Assembly: GCF_024223415.1 (NCBI RefSeq)
Contig: NZ_CP100500.1
From: Escherichia coli
GTDB lineage: Bacteria > Pseudomonadota > Gammaproteobacteria > Enterobacterales > Enterobacteriaceae
Length of the DNA: 64,000 nucleotides
Reading direction: 5' to 3' (one strand)
The notes under the pieces are model-generated. The model had not been told where the DNA came from, made no database searches, and saw only the letters and a list, made by a program, of their open reading frames with translations. The position numbers and the translations under genes are program-made. This document shows, in pieces, positions 8,602 through 34,906 of the stretch. The first letter of the stretch is position 1; every line of letters starts with the position of its first letter.

Positions 8602-9468
8602 ATGGCAGCAAAGATTATTGACGGTAAAACGATTGCGCAGCAGGTGCGCTCTGAAGTTGCTCAAAAAGTTCAGGCGCGTATTGCAGCCGGACTGCGGGCA
8701 CCAGGACTGGCCGTTGTGCTGGTGGGTAGTAACCCTGCATCGCAAATTTATGTCGCAAGCAAACGCAAGGCTTGTGAAGAAGTCGGGTTCGTCTCCCGCT
8801 CTTACGACCTCCCGGAAACCACCAGCGAAGCGGAGCTGCTGGAGCTTATCGATACGCTGAATGCCGATAACACCATCGATGGCATTCTGGTTCAACTGCC
8901 GTTACCGGCGGGTATTGATAACGTCAAAGTGCTGGAACGTATACACCCGGACAAAGACGTAGACGGTTTCCATCCTTATAACGTCGGTCGTCTGTGCCAG
9001 CGCGCGCCGCGTCTGCGTCCCTGCACCCCGCGCGGTATTGTCACGCTGCTTGAGCGTTACAACATTGATACCTTCGGCCTCAACGCCGTGGTGATTGGCG
9101 CATCGAATATCGTTGGCCGCCCGATGAGCATGGAACTGTTGCTCGCAGGTTGCACCACCACCGTGACTCACCGTTTCACTAAAAATCTGCGTCACCACGT
9201 AGAAAATGCCGATCTACTGATCGTTGCCGTCGGCAAGCCGGGCTTTATTCCTGGTGACTGGATCAAAGAAGGCGCAATTGTGATTGATGTCGGCATCAAC
9301 CGTCTGGAAAATGGCAAAGTTGTGGGCGACGTCGTGTTTGAAGACGCGGCTAAACGCGCCTCATACATTACGCCTGTTCCGGGCGGCGTTGGCCCGATGA
9401 CGGTTGCCACGCTGATTGAAAACACGCTACAGGCGTGCGTTGAATATCATGATCCACAGGGTGAGTAA
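8602..9468 (+). CDS. folD: bifunctional methylene-THF dehydrogenase/methenyl-THF cyclohydrolase
   Basis: 288 aa, [19 protein letters not shown]. Confidence 0.97.
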
Positions 9469-27773: not shown

Positions 27774-29522
27774 CTATAAAAACGCGTCGCAGTCGTCTGT
27801 TGTTGTCACGTTGGTTTGCGTAAACCCTTTAATCCTGCGCGTTATATATTCATGACCGTAAACTTTCGCCGCTGGCTTCATGGCCTTGCTGAACTCAGCC
27901 ACGTTCAGCGGTTTGCTCCTGCCTGCATACGCCATAAACGCCAGATAGACGCGGTAAAGGCTGTTTCTGGTCGTGTACTTCACTGAATCGCCACCGCCGC
28001 CCATCATCAGGCCACGTGCTTCCTCCAGAAAATTCAGGAACTGGCAAAACTCAATAACCGGATCCGTCTGTTGCTTTATTGCCAGAGCTTCATCACCGTC
28101 TCGCTGTTCAATGAGTAAAGCCCGTGCCTTTTCAGGGTCGGCAAAGTTCGCCAGCAAGCGGCGGATAATGACAGGGATTTCAGCCGCGATCTTTTCCGGT
28201 AGCTCCCTGTCTTTTTCTGCCTCGCTTACGATGTTATCGAACCGGAATATCACCCGACGACGTGACACGCCTCCTGCCCGTTCGGTGAATATCATCGGGT
28301 TATTATTGGTTGCCAGCACAACCGCCCTGATTACCGCCGTGAATCGCTTTTCATATTTCGGGTTGATTTCCACGGGGTCGCCGCCCGTGATTTTCTTGAT
28401 GCCCGTTCCTTCGCCTGTATATTTCGGCTGGTCTGCCAGGACAATAAGCCTACTCCCGACAACCTGCGCACGCCCACCAGCATCATCAAGCGATGTCATC
28501 TCAGCGCTTACCGTGTTCTGTTTCCCTGCCAGAAGGCTGGCTATGTGTGTGAATGTACTTTTACCGCTCCCGCCGTCTCCGGTGGCCTCAATAAACATCT
28601 GCCAGTCGTACCGGTTCGCCATAATCATGTACAGCGCGGCACATATACGCATCATCTTGCGCGGGTCTTTTCCGGCAGCGTGATCAAGCCATTTATGAAA
28701 GTTTGGCGCGTTGTCGCGGATATTCTCACCTGGTACTGGCGGCGTGTACTCAATGCCGTTGTGTGTGGTGATCCAGTTCTCCGGCGTGTGCGGGGAAAAT
28801 TCCCCCGTTTTCAGGTCAAGCGCACCATTGGCGAACGGCAGCAAATCGCCGGACGGCTCGCCCATTGGTTCGGCAATAACTTTTAACGCTTCCACGGCGT
28901 TACTGATTACGCGCTTGCTGAAAGTGGCCCTGTGCTCTGAATAGATCGCCACCATTTCGCGGCTCAGTTCCATTGTGCTGACCGGACACCATACCCCGCC
29001 GCGCCATACGTGAACGATTTCACTTTCCAGATGCACACAAACGCCATCAAATCGACCAGCAAGCATCTGTGCGCGCTCACTGTCTGCCATTTGTGCCAGT
29101 TGCGTATTTTTCTGCTCCGGCATGGTAAGCCCTGCGGCAATATTTTCACGCTCAGCATTCAGATAGCGCCGCCAGTTTTCACACTTCTGACCGTGCATTC
29201 CTTCAGAGTAAAAATTCGCATCCTGAATATCTGCCGCCGCCAGCTTCTGACCAATCTTTTTGGTCTCCACTAAATCCAGTTCTCCGGCCTGGTACAGCCT
29301 TACGCGTTTTTTTCCATCCGGAACAATTTTCAGCGCATCAAGTTCAGCAAGCTGATTTGGCCCAAGCCACACAGGCGGCACATTATCGCCGGATGCGGGA
29401 CCGTCCTTCTCCTGCCACTGTTGTGCATGCGACCAGGCATCACTACCCGCAAAGATAATTACCTCTGTGTCTTTGTGTTTTATTCCGCGTGGCTGTTTTT
29501 TTACGTTCGGTGCCAGTTTCAT
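27774..29522 (-). CDS. P4-alpha-type primase/SF3 helicase (replication initiator)
   Basis: 582 aa with Walker A GDGGSGKST and a D5_N/P4-family C-terminal layout. Confidence 0.85.
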   Translation of the reverse strand: MKLAPNVKKQPRGIKHKDTEVIIFAGSDAWSHAQQWQEKDGPASGDNVPPVWLGPNQLAELDALKIVPDGKKRVRLYQAGELDLVETKKIGQKLAAADIQDANFYSEGMHGQKCENWRRYLNAERENIAAGLTMPEQKNTQLAQMADSERAQMLAGRFDGVCVHLESEIVHVWRGGVWCPVSTMELSREMVAIYSEHRATFSKRVISNAVEALKVIAEPMGEPSGDLLPFANGALDLKTGEFSPHTPENWITTHNGIEYTPPVPGENIRDNAPNFHKWLDHAAGKDPRKMMRICAALYMIMANRYDWQMFIEATGDGGSGKSTFTHIASLLAGKQNTVSAEMTSLDDAGGRAQVVGSRLIVLADQPKYTGEGTGIKKITGGDPVEINPKYEKRFTAVIRAVVLATNNNPMIFTERAGGVSRRRVIFRFDNIVSEAEKDRELPEKIAAEIPVIIRRLLANFADPEKARALLIEQRDGDEALAIKQQTDPVIEFCQFLNFLEEARGLMMGGGGDSVKYTTRNSLYRVYLAFMAYAGRSKPLNVAEFSKAMKPAAKVYGHEYITRRIKGFTQTNVTTTDDCDAFL

Positions 29523-30431: not shown

Positions 30432-30789
30432 GGCGCACCCCCTGAATAACCTGATATCCGCAACTGGTCAGCAATTCGATAAATTCCGGCAGAGTGCCAA
30501 AACAGCAATCAGTGCGTAGCTGTTCGCAGGATACCTCAACGCCGTTTTCGTAATGGCTCACTATGCGCCCGGTAAAATGCGGATCATCATCGTGATGGCA
30601 CGTTGACGGTTTCATCAGCCGCGCGCGTTCCGCCAGTTCCAGCAATGCTTCAACGCTTCCGGCAATTGCACCATCCGGCAGGTGATAATTACTTACTACG
30701 CGTCCATTCTCTACATTGACCAGTAGCTGTCCGGTAAATTTCTCACGAAACTGAACGCGGTTAAGATCGGTAAGTGACAGGTTAATCAT
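30424..30789 (-). CDS. hypothetical 121-aa protein
   Basis: Start MINLSLTDLNR, chosen because ATGATTAA overlaps the upstream stop codon. Confidence 0.55.
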   Translation of the reverse strand: MINLSLTDLNRVQFREKFTGQLLVNVENGRVVSNYHLPDGAIAGSVEALLELAERARLMKPSTCHHDDDPHFTGRIVSHYENGVEVSCEQLRTDCCFGTLPEFIELLTSCGYQVIQGVRHA

Positions 30790-30979
30790 GGCACACCTCC
30801 TGACGAATACGGGCGGCGAATACAGCGACACAACCGGACGGGCAACGGTTACGCGCTTCGCGTTCTGTCCAGGCGGTCACGTGGATAATTTGAGATTCTC
30901 CGGCACTCAGTGCCAGAAAACGCCACACAAAGGCGGTTTGTGTGTGCGCAAGGCGTGGGGTATGCTGTGTTCCAGCCAT
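30782..30979 (-). CDS. small Icd-like (P4-family cell-division-inhibitor-like) protein
   Basis: 65 aa MAGTQHTPRLAHTQTAFVWRFLALS...TEREARNRC...FAARIRQE, with SD GAGGT. The family call is from memory of P4-like prophage annotations. Confidence 0.4.
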   Translation of the reverse strand: MAGTQHTPRLAHTQTAFVWRFLALSAGESQIIHVTAWTEREARNRCPSGCVAVFAARIRQEVCHD

Positions 30980-31070
30980 AATCGTTACCTCAATTAATGG
31001 TTTGGTTAGAAGCCCGTTGGTGTTCATAGCGCCAGCGGGCTTTGTCTTTTCATCGATTACCTCAATAAAG

Positions 31071-31151
31071 GTGTCAGCCACTATACTAGTAACAGGTGTC
31101 AGCCACGTCAATAGTGTTTTTCCATTTTCTTGTGTGTATACTGTCAGCCAC
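31071..31151. promoter_or_regulatory. divergent control region with three (G/C)TGTCAGCCAC repeats interleaved with TATACT -10-like hexamers
   Basis: Copies at 31071-31081, 31096-31106 and 31141-31151. TATACT at 31082-31087 and 31137-31142. Confidence 0.65.
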
Positions 31152-31172
31152 CTAATAACAAGGAAATCAGAT

Positions 31173-31352
31173 ATGGCAACGAAAGCAGTTAATGGAAAAT
31201 CCAAAAAACTTGAGGCACGAGTCCCCCATGCAATAGCTGACGCTTTAGAAAATTTAAAGGAAGAAGGCGAAAGCACTGGGCAATTTATCGTTTCGGCACT
31301 TGAAGGCGAGATCAAACGCCGCCAGCGCCGGAAGGCCAAAGAATCAGAATAA
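31173..31352 (+). CDS. ribbon-helix-helix (Arc/MetJ/CopG-like) DNA-binding protein, candidate satellite repressor
   Basis: 59 aa. KKLEARVPHAIADALENLKEEGESTGQFIVSALEGEIKRRQ fits a beta-strand/helix/helix pattern. Divergent from the early operon. Confidence 0.6.
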   Translation: MATKAVNGKSKKLEARVPHAIADALENLKEEGESTGQFIVSALEGEIKRRQRRKAKESE

Positions 31353-31409
31353 TCACTATCAGCGCCGTGGTGTGAGGTACTGCGGCGCATTGTTTTAAAG
31401 GTGATAATT

Positions 31410-31601
31410 ATGAATAACCAAGAACTACAAAATAAAGCATTATCAATTATCATGCGCCAGCGTGAGAAAACCCGCAGGGAAATAAATAAGGCATTAACCC
31501 GCACTGAAAATCTTAAAGTTCCTGATAAGTTCGCCCTTGATCCTTTTGTCGAGAAATACCCTCGGCGCTTAAAAGCAAACAAAAACCGCCCACCTGGCTG
31601 A
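31410..31601 (+). CDS. hypothetical 63-aa basic protein
   Basis: ATG with SD AAGGTG. Followed by an intrinsic terminator. Confidence 0.5.
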   Translation: MNNQELQNKALSIIMRQREKTRREINKALTRTENLKVPDKFALDPFVEKYPRRLKANKNRPPG

Positions 31602-31635
31602 CAATCCACCAGCAAGCCAGGACACTGATCACATT

Positions 31636-31663
31636 GGCCACCGTGACAGGTGGCCTTTTCTTT
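31636..31663 (+). terminator. intrinsic terminator of the rhh operon
   Basis: GGCCACC-gtgaca-GGTGGCC followed by TTTTCTTT. Confidence 0.8.
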
Positions 31664-31716
31664 GCCCGTTATCCGGCAATTGTGGCGCTTCGCCACACGG
31701 TTGATATAATCCCACT

Positions 31717-31787
31717 GCTCATATTCATTTTTTGCGCAGTAGGTTAATTGTTCAGAAAGGCGGCTCCTTATCGGGGCCGCTTTTTTT
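31717..31787 (+). ncRNA. candidate ~70-nt small RNA, antisense to the alpA-early operon transcript
   Basis: An extended -10 TGATATAAT (31702-31710) lies upstream of an 8-bp-stem hairpin plus T7 (31760-31787). There is no credible plus-strand CDS between them. Confidence 0.35.
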
Positions 31788-31928
31788 ATGTCTGAAAAAC
31801 CGCGATTTTGTTGTTTTTCAGTTTCACAAGGCCGAACGAAGCCCCGCCCCTGTTCGGGCGTATATCCAGTCTTCATGGTTAAATCTCTGTATTAGTGGAT
31901 GGGTGGCGGCTGTGTGCCGCCAGTCTTT

Positions 31929-32117
31929 TTAGTGAACTGCCTCGCAGCTTTCCTTCCATGCCAGAACTTCGGATAAAGACCAGCCAACGGAACGACCGCC
32001 CAGCTTACGCCGTGATGGGAATTGTCCGGCCTTTTCCAGGCGGTAGCGGCATGAGCGGCTAAGCCCTGTTAGCTTTTCGCATTCTTTTTCACGTATAAAC
32101 CGATCAGTGCTTAACAC
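31929..32117 (-). CDS. alpA: AlpA-family HTH regulator/excisionase-like protein
   Basis: 62 aa, GTG start with SD AAAGGGGG. The LTGLSRSCRYRLEKAGQFPSRRKLGGRSVGWSLSEVLAW motif is typical of AlpA. Confidence 0.85.
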   Translation of the reverse strand: MLSTDRFIREKECEKLTGLSRSCRYRLEKAGQFPSRRKLGGRSVGWSLSEVLAWKESCEAVH

Positions 32118-32409
32118 TATTGCCCCCTTTCGTTTCTTAAAGAGTTATTTCGTGTTCTATTGCGTTGGTATGTGTCTGATTGTGTCAGGGTGATTCAGAG
32201 TTGGCAAATGTTGGTGGCGGGTATTTTACAGAAACGGGGTTATTTTAATAAAAAACATTTTAATTCAGTATTATGCAAAGGCATAAAATCTCGTTTTATG
32301 CCTTTTTTCTCACTATTTAAAGCGTTATTCGCTAATGTATAAAAAACCAGTTGAGCATTAAAAATCAGCAACTTATAAATCTGTATACTTTTTGGCCTCT
32401 TGTTCGTGG

Positions 32410-32443
32410 TTGTTTCACGTTGTTGCGTATTGTTTCACGTTGT
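32410..32443 (+). repeat. two direct copies of TTGTTTCACGTTGT, 20 bp apart
   Basis: The same 13-mer family occurs inverted near both island ends (22364-22379 and 33787-33800). Confidence 0.75.
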
Positions 32444-32491
32444 ATCTGTGCACTTATCCAGTATGCGCATACTGAAAAAACACGAAAAAAA

Positions 32492-33742
32492 TTATTTTCT
32501 TCTGGTTACTGGTAGCGTGGTTACGTTTTCATGTGCTCCCGCCAGTATCTCCAACCGCTCCACCCACATATCCAGCGCATTGCGTTTCGCATCCAGATAA
32601 CGGGAATGATTATAAACTCGCTGCATTCCTGGCATCTGGTGGCCTGTAAGCTGCTCCACGACGTGAGGATCCACGCCTAAATCGTTCAGCATCGTTGTAA
32701 AGGTGCGCCGGATGTCATGCAGTGACCAGTGAGGGTGTTTAAGCCTCCTGTGCGCTAATCTTCCATACTGCGATACGCTGGCCTCCTGTTTCACTTCCCC
32801 CAGCAATAAGCCCGTGTGCCTGTTCTGCTCCACCAGCTGCGTGACGAACGGCAGTATCGCTTCCGGTATGGGCCGGAATATGGCTACCTTCGTTTTGCTG
32901 TGCTCCTTCGGAACGGTCCATAGCATTTCGGTAAAATCCCACTCCCCGATCTCCGATAGCCTCAGTTCTACTGTCCTGGCTCCGAAGACAATCAGGAGGC
33001 GGATTAGTGCGACGTAGTAAGGGGAAAATATTTTTTTGTCCAGTGCCTGCAATAATTCGCCAAGTTCTTTGTTACTTAAGACACGCTGACTTATATCCGG
33101 TTTTTTCCCAACGTCAGCAACACTCATATCATCAAGAACGTTGCTGATTGCATAGCGCCGCTTCCGGCAGAACTTAAGCGCCTGTTTGCATGTCTGTAGC
33201 AGGAATCCGGCGGAAACAGGGGCTTGCTTTGCCACCCGATCAAAACAGGCCAGCCAGTGCCGTAGCTCGCATTTATCCAGCGGCATAGCACCAATCTGCT
33301 GTATTACGTGATTATTAAGTCGCCTTTTCAGGGCGATATAATCCACGCGGTTTTCCTTTACGTAATACTCAAGCCAGTAGGTAAGCGCATCGCCAACCGT
33401 TACAGGCTTTAACGCTTCCTGTACGGTGTAATTCATCTCATGACGTGGATTTTTCCCCTCAGCCAGCCATGCGCGGCACTGTGCGGCTTTTTCCCTGGCT
33501 GCTTTCAGGCTCAGATCAGGATAATTTCCCAGCTTAATCCGTTCCGGTCGTGCTCCCCTTCCCGTTCCGGCCCTGTAGGTGAAATACCAGGTTAAAAGGC
33601 CGCTGGTTGAATGCCTGACGGTCAGGTTTCCACCGTCATTAAGAAAGACTGTTTTTTGGGCGGGTGTGCCGTTGATTTTCCTTAGCTGTGTATCGCTCAG
33701 TTTGTTAAGTGCTCTGCGCATAATTTTGATTCCGGTCATCAC
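32492..33742 (-). CDS. int: P4-family tyrosine integrase
   Basis: About 410 aa with catalytic HDIRRT...GH...Y motifs. Adjacent to the right attachment site. The start is ambiguous (GTG 33742, ATG 33739 or the ATG of MRRALNKL). Confidence 0.9.
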   Translation of the reverse strand: MMTGIKIMRRALNKLSDTQLRKINGTPAQKTVFLNDGGNLTVRHSTSGLLTWYFTYRAGTGRGARPERIKLGNYPDLSLKAAREKAAQCRAWLAEGKNPRHEMNYTVQEALKPVTVGDALTYWLEYYVKENRVDYIALKRRLNNHVIQQIGAMPLDKCELRHWLACFDRVAKQAPVSAGFLLQTCKQALKFCRKRRYAISNVLDDMSVADVGKKPDISQRVLSNKELGELLQALDKKIFSPYYVALIRLLIVFGARTVELRLSEIGEWDFTEMLWTVPKEHSKTKVAIFRPIPEAILPFVTQLVEQNRHTGLLLGEVKQEASVSQYGRLAHRRLKHPHWSLHDIRRTFTTMLNDLGVDPHVVEQLTGHQMPGMQRVYNHSRYLDAKRNALDMWVERLEILAGAHENVTTLPVTRRK

Positions 33743-34679: not shown

Positions 34680-34721
34680 GTCATACCACTCGCCTGATTA
34701 TTTTTAGCTATGTTGGATTTT

Positions 34722-34748
34722 GCCACGGTTTATACCGTGGCTTTTTTT
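34722..34748 (+). terminator. intrinsic terminator after allE
   Basis: GCCACGG-tttata-CCGTGGC followed by T7. Confidence 0.8.
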
Positions 34749-34756
34749 GTAACATT

Positions 34757-34785
34757 GCCTGATGCGCTTCGCTTATCAGGCCTAC
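34757..34785. repeat. REP element
   Basis: GCCTGATGCGCTTCGCTTATCAGGCCTAC. Confidence 0.85.
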
Positions 34786-34906
34786 ATGATCTCTGCAATA
34801 TATAGAATTTGCGCGATTTTCAGGAAGGATATAGTGCTCATGCAGCATCCGGCATGAGCACTGCGCTCTTATACGAAATAAATCGCATCCGCTTTAAAGG
34901 TAAGGG

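Follow-up and report, generated by a model that had tools for sequence, protein, structure and literature searches.

What keeps the phage-inducible chromosomal islands (PICIs) of Gram-negative bacteria silent? The locus described here bears on that question. It lies in a stretch of 64,000 nucleotides from Escherichia coli (contig NZ_CP100500.1 of assembly GCF_024223415.1), referred to below as the window, which holds an element that, to judge by its genes, is a Gram-negative PICI: an integrase gene (int), the regulator gene alpA, a regulatory 'Bro zone', a primase gene and capsid genes are all present. Just downstream of alpA is an interval (31602-31928) that an earlier note, made from the letters of the window, had read as a non-coding gap holding a candidate antisense small RNA (sRNA). 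The comparison with related loci presented here suggests that positions 31702-31787 are very probably a real, separate plus-strand transcription unit for a non-coding RNA, and that this unit sits inside a long minus-strand open reading frame (ORF) akin to eta of P4. As such, the sRNA is a candidate for the missing brake on these islands and, if the role proposed for it below is true, it would make the quiescence and induction of PICIs accessible through a concrete target that is easy to mutate.

The plus-strand RNA unit

The predicted unit and the two hairpins on either side of it are made up of the following features.

31636-31655, plus strand: hairpin 1, GGCCACC/GGTGGCC, with a T-rich tail to 31663
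31681-31697: palindrome TGTGGCGCTTCGCCACA, spanning the -35/spacer part of the sRNA promoter
31702-31710, plus strand: extended -10 promoter TGATATAAT (Type I) of the candidate sRNA, without a good -35
31717-31787, plus strand: predicted sRNA of about 71 nt, its 5' end placed from the -10
31759-31780, plus strand: hairpin 2, GGCGGCTCC-TTATC-GGGGCCGC, followed by T7 at 31781-31787
31905-31921: hairpin 3, GGCGGC-TGTGT-GCCGCC, between the alpA stop codon and the ATG of the eta-like ORF

The perfect extended -10 and the palindrome upstream of it are present where the earlier note had placed them, as are the three hairpins that it took for plus-oriented terminators, and the transcript of about 70 nt that it proposed between the -10 and the second terminator now has strong comparative support. 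Reading from its 5' end, the predicted RNA consists of a U-rich part, a conserved box GCGCAGTAGGTTAATTGTTC (31734-31753), the terminator hairpin and U7, and since it has neither an ATG nor a Shine-Dalgarno sequence it is taken to be non-coding. The 74-nt stretch that covers it (31717-31790) folds at -24.2 kcal/mol with a z-score of -4.0. Hairpin 2 was not listed by a simple terminator scan, probably because pairing with an upstream AAA extends its stem into the T-run. The 2.5-kb region as a whole has 10 terminator-like sites, against 3.2 +/- 1.6 in shuffled sequence. The palindrome may serve as an operator or may form a hairpin. The motif TGNTATAAT occurs once in the window where 1.9 occurrences are expected, so that the -10 is not significant as a lone motif and its weight lies in its conservation.

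That conservation was assessed in about 300 related loci overall, mostly from E. coli and Shigella. One sample was collected with a degenerate pattern of the box and gave about 200 true homologues from IMG/VR and metagenomes, and two further samples were independent of the box, with loci retrieved by the terminator alone or by the alpA protein alone. Megablast/blastn searches covered 5426 complete E. coli genomes, of which 1091, or about 20%, have the 3' half (box and terminator) and 285 the full unit with its Type I promoter; carriers include O157:H7 Sakai, in prophage Sp7, and EDL933. In Sakai the 3' half corresponds to NC_002695.2, 1596812-1596873, and the RNA region as a whole reaches slightly beyond it. 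A search for the box pattern in a set with one genome per species was nearly empty (Shigella flexneri only, plus three chance matches), which indicates that the unit is either taxonomically narrow or fast-diverging, and a phage collection held no DNA similarity to 31600-31935.

Within this group, three unrelated upstream modules each set a near-consensus -10 ahead of the same RNA body. In Type I loci the -10 TGATATAAT is intact in 108 of 111, and its 24-nt spacing to the GCGCAG box is kept in 110 of 111. Type II, the type of O157 Sakai Sp7 and EDL933, has the promoter TTGCCC-17-TATCAT in 93 of 97 loci, which a promoter scan also lists, and carries its own palindrome, TGATAGC-G-GCTATCA, over the -10; its predicted RNA would be about 83 nt long. 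Type III has the promoter GCTATAAT and was found in the relative L233. The palindrome of the window appears in relatives as the variant TGGTCATTTCGACCA, in which both arms are changed and the dyad is kept, and several one-arm variants occur too. A link between the palindrome variant and the variant of the neighboring ribbon-helix-helix (RHH)-like gene was also considered and was rejected; the two show no association, and the modules are freely shuffled.

The terminator of the unit varies in a way that preserves its structure. Three variants of its stem are found.

Terminator variant a: GGCGGCTCC / GGGGCCGC
Terminator variant b: GGCGCTCCG / CGGGGCGC
Terminator variant c: GGCGCTCAGG / CTGGGCGC

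These differ by an inserted base pair and by changes of C-G to A-U and of C-G to U-A, and the stem is preserved in each. Among the point variants, G.U pairs on the plus strand correspond to A.C mismatches on the minus strand. As a MAFFT alignment puts variants a and b out of register, each variant was folded on both strands in place of a formal covariation count. Plus-strand RNA is the more stable form of each of the 20 unique variants, on average -19.0 vs. -10.5 kcal/mol, a difference of about 8.5 kcal/mol.

In the box-independent samples, the best-conserved stretch is the 20-nt box GCGCAG-N-AGGTTAATTGTTC, which 110 of 114 loci from the search with terminator b and all 63 BLAST-found loci of the alpA-based sample have kept. 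Where loci were selected solely by their alpA allele, 66 of 69 have the unit no more than 420 nt downstream of alpA. The unit persists despite changes of the alpA-side junction (at least five different ones), with either of two unrelated AlpA alleles and next to many variants of RHH and orf2. The two features that mark cis-encoded antisense sRNAs as a class appear to be present, namely a promoter of its own on the opposite strand, seen in the conserved -10 and its alternative modules, and a 3' end set by a strand-specific terminator, seen in the U7 and in the folding of 20/20 variants. The anatomy, its conservation and the strand on which the terminator is selected are what the comparison shows; transcription of the RNA, and its 5' end near 31717, are inferred.

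Hairpin 1, which was listed by the terminator scan and folds at -15.7 kcal/mol, is by its form the intrinsic terminator of the plus-strand operon of the RHH gene and orf63; at its site some relatives have a different hairpin, GGCGACC..GGTCGCC with a T-run, and Type II islands have no hairpin there. Hairpin 3, supported by the terminator scan and by folding, is followed in the window by AGTCTTTTT, with T5 in a stretch that runs to 31930. Its stem is conserved in relatives, of which a minority has the T-run and most have AGCGTGATTAA or AGCCTGATTAG instead, and its single variants point to different strands. It is therefore not a conserved plus-strand terminator, and in this respect the earlier description does not hold.

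No account of the candidate RNA was found in the searchable literature, with PMC10111431 reporting only C4/isrK-type RNAs in the Bro zones of PICIs. No Rfam family matched the interval at gathering score, and no description of the RNA was found in Rfam 15. The weak Rfam matches in the interval (isrD, Atu_C8 and leaders) were dismissed as mere terminator look-alikes.

The eta-like frame on the opposite strand

The strand opposite the RNA carries a long ORF that begins shortly after alpA and runs antisense to two plus-strand genes as well.

31929-31931, minus strand: stop codon of alpA
30782-31876, minus strand: eta/kil-like ORF of 364 codons, with its ATG at 31874-31876
31173-31352, plus strand: YlcI/YnfO-family, RHH-like gene (NCBIfam NF041551, 62 bits; PHROG 949, 1.7e-22)
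31410-31601, plus strand: orf63, the second plus-strand gene

The earlier note had a minus-strand ORF reading through all three hairpins and judged it probably not real. The ORF starts at 31876 and crosses hairpins 1 and 2 only, and the judgment has to be reversed, as its openness is non-random and conserved and it contains the Icd-like domain of P4 Eta/Kil. A conserved and translated ORF at this position had been thought to speak against the sRNA; the frame is indeed conserved, and the sRNA is not thereby refuted, because both features coexist. The RNA is fully complementary to codons 30-54 of the ORF, and to anything that is transcribed leftward from alpA. This much of the proposed complementarity stands, while the plain leader that was thought to connect alpA to the early operon does not exist, since the RHH gene and orf63 intervene.

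The 261 codons upstream of the short, kil-like form of the ORF contain no stop, vs. 15 and 20 stops in the other two minus-strand frames. The gap 31602-31873 stays open in 0.9% of shuffles, and the product of the probabilities of the individual segments is about 1e-4. In relatives the ORF is open for 247-484 codons and, with the RNA box as the reference point, is in the same frame in 164 of 165 loci, vs. about 18-24 stops in their other frames, and this openness holds across at least five alpA-side junctions and many RHH/orf2 modules. The amino acid sequence shows no comparable constraint. Over the first 47 codons, variable sites number 13, 16 and 14 by codon position, without third-position bias, and the synonymous fraction is no higher than in the wrong frames; neither the first 91 residues nor the N-terminal 315 have a Pfam or NCBIfam match. 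From these patterns it seems that the openness of the frame is selected, rather than the product of the ORF, in agreement with what PMC10111431 relates of P4 eta.

At the far end of the frame is an Icd-like domain (NCBIfam NF033153, 61 bits), at residues 316-359 of 364 or about 30800-30931, and a nested short form is annotated by PGAP from about 31093 in strain AR_0085, which carries a near-identical copy of the island (NZ_CP029741, at about 3.79 Mb). A tblastn search of the phage collection with the Icd-like part gave four weak matches, P4 not among them, and the domain of some relatives is encoded in a different frame. The RefSeq label 'Icd-like pseudogene' on the N-terminal part of the ORF has no support from hidden Markov models, the domain being at the C-terminus. 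In RefSeq annotation of the loci L001 and L002-L005, features called 'Icd-like' or 'ash family' and 'incomplete, missing C-terminus' are pieces of one eta-like frame and not decayed genes. In O157:H7 FRIK2069 (L002; also in Sakai Sp7), two small plus-strand ORFs at 2527-2700 and 2743-2931, one Arc/RHH-like and one for a basic protein of 62 aa, are unannotated by PGAP, which calls a 594-nt 'Icd-like pseudogene' on the opposite strand. Annotation pipelines split the long frame into 'Icd-like' and 'ash family' pseudogenes and miss the RNA and, in O157, the plus-strand genes.

Among the relatives compared, the sRNA is invariably at the 5' end of the long ORF. The ATG itself lies 53 nt past the alpA stop codon in the window, with a poor Shine-Dalgarno sequence before it, and 5-20 nt past alpA in L004. 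The first ATG is upstream of the complement of the RNA 3' end, at a distance of 8 nt (35-36 loci), 12 nt (24 loci), 89 nt (the type of the window, about 50 loci) or, in ORFs with an inserted Bro-N-like segment, 242 nt. In the 59 loci with 8-12 nt, pairing would take place within the footprint of the ribosome. In L006 (3510-3700), L253, L303, L305 and L306 the eta-like ORF either has a segment of Bro-N/AntA type between its ATG and the sRNA gene or continues into a full antirepressor-like domain, and in the latter case the sRNA unit was not found within 420 nt; the presence of Bro-N/AntA-like segments in some of the ORFs fits the 'Bro zone' of PMC10111431. An inverted repeat seen by eye occupies the first eta-like codons at 31826-31858 (CCGAAC...GTTCGG on the plus strand), with GAACG...CGTTC in O157-type relatives.

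The same setting is known from P4. There, eta (L228 8168-8812) has 214 codons, begins at the end of vis/ORF88, which it overlaps, and includes Kil as a short nested form, with NF033153 at residues 161-208 of 214 (73 bits). Two traits of a nested gene of the P4 eta/kil type are found in the window: a long same-strand ORF after alpA and upstream of the primase operon, and an in-frame C-terminal Icd-like (Kil) domain. BLASTP of the long ORF of the window against P4 Eta gave no significant alignment, and the likeness rests on the shared NCBIfam domain and on position. The immunity region of P4 occupies the corresponding place: it comes right behind the AlpA/Vis homologue and ahead of the primase operon, within a long ORF whose end encodes an Icd-like domain. 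In P4 an RNA decides whether transcription proceeds. According to the summary of Forti et al. (1999) given in PMC10111431, translation of Eta in P4 prevents termination.

The RNAs themselves are of different kinds. Those of P4 are on the same strand as eta, are processed from a leader and act in trans on repeated target sites, whereas the RNA of the window is on the opposite strand, with its own predicted promoter and terminator and with a counter-transcribed RHH gene beside it. Three genes, for the RHH protein, orf63 and the sRNA, lie antisense within the eta-like ORF of the window, and the same plus-strand genes are found in O157. With P4 eta as the positive control, the covariance models found C4 (CI; 74.9 bits against a gathering score of 45), isrK/seqA (60.8 bits) and a c4-a1b1 match. 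The C4 model RF01695 gave no gathering-score match in the whole window and none with E <= 10 in 30800-32500, and the isrK and c4-a1b1 models had no match in the window. With its position on the strand opposite the eta/icd-like frame, the candidate falls outside the same-strand C4 class.

Even so, the comparison with the P4 CI RNA made at the outset was apt, as the candidate occupies the place of CI/seqA inside an eta-like ORF downstream of an AlpA/Vis homologue. A large group of E. coli/Shigella PICIs appears to carry, at exactly the place where P4 has its RNA immunity, a conserved counter-transcribed module that comprises an RHH gene and a candidate small antisense RNA. The P4-type logic itself is known, and the candidate RNA gene is well supported by comparison; what does not seem to have been described before is the arrangement, a counter-transcribed immunity unit inside an eta-like frame. 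If the RNA acts as suggested below, the P4 rule of translating eta to read through would have passed from the control of a same-strand processed RNA to that of a convergent antisense one.

A possible antisense switch and its rivals

It appears somewhat probable that the sRNA gene, being antisense to the eta-like ORF, blocks its translation and so stops read-through from alpA, and that together with the RHH protein it replaces the CI/seqA immunity of P4. In the quiescent island the RNA would be made constitutively or under the control of an operator, and would pair with any leftward transcript from the alpA promoter. Pairing would block or abort translation of the eta-like ORF and might also create a substrate for RNase III. 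The long untranslated RNA would then be terminated or degraded before the presumably toxic Icd-like domain and the genes for replication and packaging are reached. The RHH protein, for its part, would repress a divergent internal promoter, the counterpart of P4 PLE, at the site of three TGTCAGCCAC repeats, so that protein and antisense RNA would jointly take over from the same-strand RNA immunity of P4. Helper phages are known to induce alpA (PMC6092414, PMC11773190). On induction, the increase in alpA would lead to sense transcripts that exceed or titrate the RNA, the ORF would be translated and read-through would follow.

Several observations weigh against this account. In Type II islands the upstream plus-strand gene runs on to the RNA region with no terminator in between, and the RNA there could be merely the 3' untranslated region and terminator of the upstream operon. 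The Hfq-CRAC catalogue of sRNAs of O157 Sakai (Tree et al., 2014, supplement) has no entry in Sp7, a Type II carrier. The related loci, being mostly from E. coli and Shigella, are not independent, and the covariation amounts to a few events. An antisense RNA that acts purely in cis needs no conserved box, and the conservation of the box hints at some other constraint, such as a target in trans, binding of a protein or the mRNA itself. By base composition, the minus-strand RNA has no clear C-rich, G-poor stretch of the Rho type just past the target. Finally, in the type of the window pairing starts 89 nt downstream of the ATG and not at the ribosome-binding site.

A bolder form of the proposal, offered tentatively and on balance doubtful, is that the eta-like frame of 300-480 codons is a 'ribosome track' that is selected for translation only. 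The frame runs antisense through the whole counter-transcribed unit, from the RHH gene and the second small gene to the sRNA gene. Were this the case, the sRNA would gate the entry of ribosomes and thereby the survival of transcripts from the alpA promoter as far as the replication genes, in an RNA-gated, translation-coupled antitermination switch, and would provide the long-sought repressor function of Gram-negative PICIs.

Other explanations take the RNA, its target or the frame out of the switch. One of them is that the locus is only an insulator, with hairpins 1 and 2 (and 3 in the window) as tandem terminators that shield alpA and int from the RHH operon, no working -10 and no functional RNA. 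In Type II islands, where nothing else terminates transcription between the upstream plus-strand gene and the T7 hairpin, that hairpin must indeed end the operon, and the chance-level frequency of TGNTATAAT in the window and the lack of an Sp7 sRNA in the Sakai Hfq data set agree with such a role. It is nonetheless unlikely, because a good terminator already stands about 100 nt upstream in Type I islands, because a near-consensus -10 recurs at a fixed distance in each of the three promoter modules, and because the 20 nt between the -10 and the hairpin are the most conserved stretch of the region, unlike a mere spacer. Unlikely to about the same degree is a trans-acting sRNA whose conserved box pairs with a host or helper-phage mRNA, for instance so as to sense the helper or interfere with it, its overlap with the eta-like ORF being incidental. 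The candidate has a long U tail at its terminator as well as a U-rich stretch, both typical of Hfq-dependent sRNAs, and its box is conserved beyond what antisense action in cis would need. Yet RNAduplex found no convincing second target within the 64-kb window, where only the self site stands out, the phage collection has no DNA similarity to the unit, the Sakai Hfq data have no entry for it, and among the relatives it is always found at the 5' end of the long ORF. The best non-self duplex, formed with the 5' part of the sRNA, is at 8611-8690 on the minus strand (-33 kcal/mol; runs of 12 and 13 paired bases, including UUGCGCAGUAGG); the site is antisense to the chromosomal ORF 8602-9468, and the pairing is probably due to chance.

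The two remaining explanations place the function on the minus strand or leave it out. The hairpins could be structures in the alpA-eta-like mRNA, either terminators that are bypassed with the help of AlpA or processing sites, rather than terminators of plus-strand transcripts. The precedent is Pseudomonas AlpA, which lets RNA polymerase bypass intrinsic terminators (PMC7969949, PMC9371919); moreover, hairpin 3, a perfect G+C palindrome, can form on either strand (minus strand, -13.9 kcal/mol, z = -4.3), and in the relative L017 it has a change that keeps pairing on the minus strand only. What makes this explanation quite improbable is that hairpin 2 is weaker on the minus strand in 20/20 variants, with A.C mismatches, and is followed there by UUUCUG and not by a U tract, that hairpin 3 is followed on that strand by ACCCAUCC, and that the long ORF has to be read through both hairpins. 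Least probable of all, to the point of being very hard to uphold, is the plain non-coding leader of the earlier note with a minus-strand ORF open by chance. The absence of amino acid-level conservation in the first 47 codons, of Pfam/NCBIfam matches in the N-terminal 315 residues and of a good Shine-Dalgarno sequence before the ATG at 31876 would all suit a leader. A leader would not, on the other hand, lead us to expect a frame free of stops beside frames with 15 and 20 (joint shuffle probability about 1e-4 in the window alone), a shared frame that 164 of 165 relatives, for all their swapped modules, keep open over 247-484 codons, or a C-terminal Icd-like domain and a position that match P4 eta. 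The antisense reading remains the one that we favor.

Known parallels and the island setting

Short antisense RNAs are found in other regulatory switches. The OOP RNA of phage lambda is 77 nt long and is transcribed from a promoter of its own up to an intrinsic terminator. It runs convergently to the regulatory gene cII of the lysis-lysogeny switch, to whose mRNA it is complementary, and acts as an antisense RNA in cis with RNase III. The candidate resembles it as a short convergent antisense RNA with its own (predicted) promoter and terminator in a regulatory switch, but there is no sequence relation, and OOP overlaps the 3' end of cII whereas the RNA of the window overlaps the 5' part of its presumed target. 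In P22, sar overlaps the ribosome-binding site of ant, and c4 of P1/P7 is a same-strand processed RNA (immI, icd-ant). These small RNAs hold down a gene of the icd/ant type in the immunity region of a temperate element, and an Icd-like product is encoded downstream here too; unlike the candidate, neither is inside a frame of 300-480 codons, and there is no covariance-model match in the window. A further parallel is with the type I toxin-antitoxin pairs hok/Sok and symE/SymR, in which a cis-encoded antisense RNA covers the 5' region of the mRNA. Here also the RNA is antisense to the 5' region of an mRNA whose Icd-like product is expected to be harmful, although about 1 kb separates the pairing site from the presumed toxic domain farther downstream, and the locus serves as the switch region of a mobile element.

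The island is inserted in the E. coli chromosome at a site adjoining allE/glxK. Its main genes around the locus are given below.

32492-33742, minus strand: integrase gene int
31929-32117, minus strand: alpA, encoding a Phage_AlpA helix-turn-helix regulator (Pfam PF05930, 65 bits), convergent with the candidate sRNA
27774-29522, minus strand: primase gene, to the left of alpA

Genes for SSB (single-stranded-DNA-binding protein), the major head protein and a head decoration protein also lie on the minus strand to the left of alpA. The order int, alpA, primase/replication module and captured capsid genes, over about 10-15 kb, is the architecture reported for Gram-negative PICIs (PMC6092414, PMC10111431). 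These elements are described as unidirectional in PMC6092414, whereas the island of the window has counter-transcribed genes. The RHH-like gene runs against the direction of the island and sits antisense within the eta-like ORF; it is annotated by PGAP in relatives and is strongly variable and mosaic between islands. The position of orf63, which had no family match in Pfam, NCBIfam or PHROG searches, is occupied by different small genes in relatives.

The three TGTCAGCCAC repeats are exact direct repeats in 31072-31151, starting at 31072, 31097 and 31142. They lie within the divergent promoter region between the kil-like start (about 31093) and the RHH gene (31173) and may be a set of operators or iterons. 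Between int and alpA, at 32277-32310, is a strong hairpin, AAAGGCAUAAAA-UCUCG-UUUUAUGCCUUU, with U6 on the plus strand and an A-run upstream (z = -4.3 for the plus and -3.6 for the minus strand). One possibility is that it terminates transcription in both directions after int; it produces weak look-alike matches to the Rfam families GibS, rli52 and SpF10, and the int-alpA motif of Rfam had no match. Just outside the island, beside allE, 34686-34820 on the minus strand matches the Rfam families of the enterobacterial sRNAs STnc480 (87.6 bits) and ES036/CssrF (38.1 bits), and a tRNA is found at 1540-1613 of the window.

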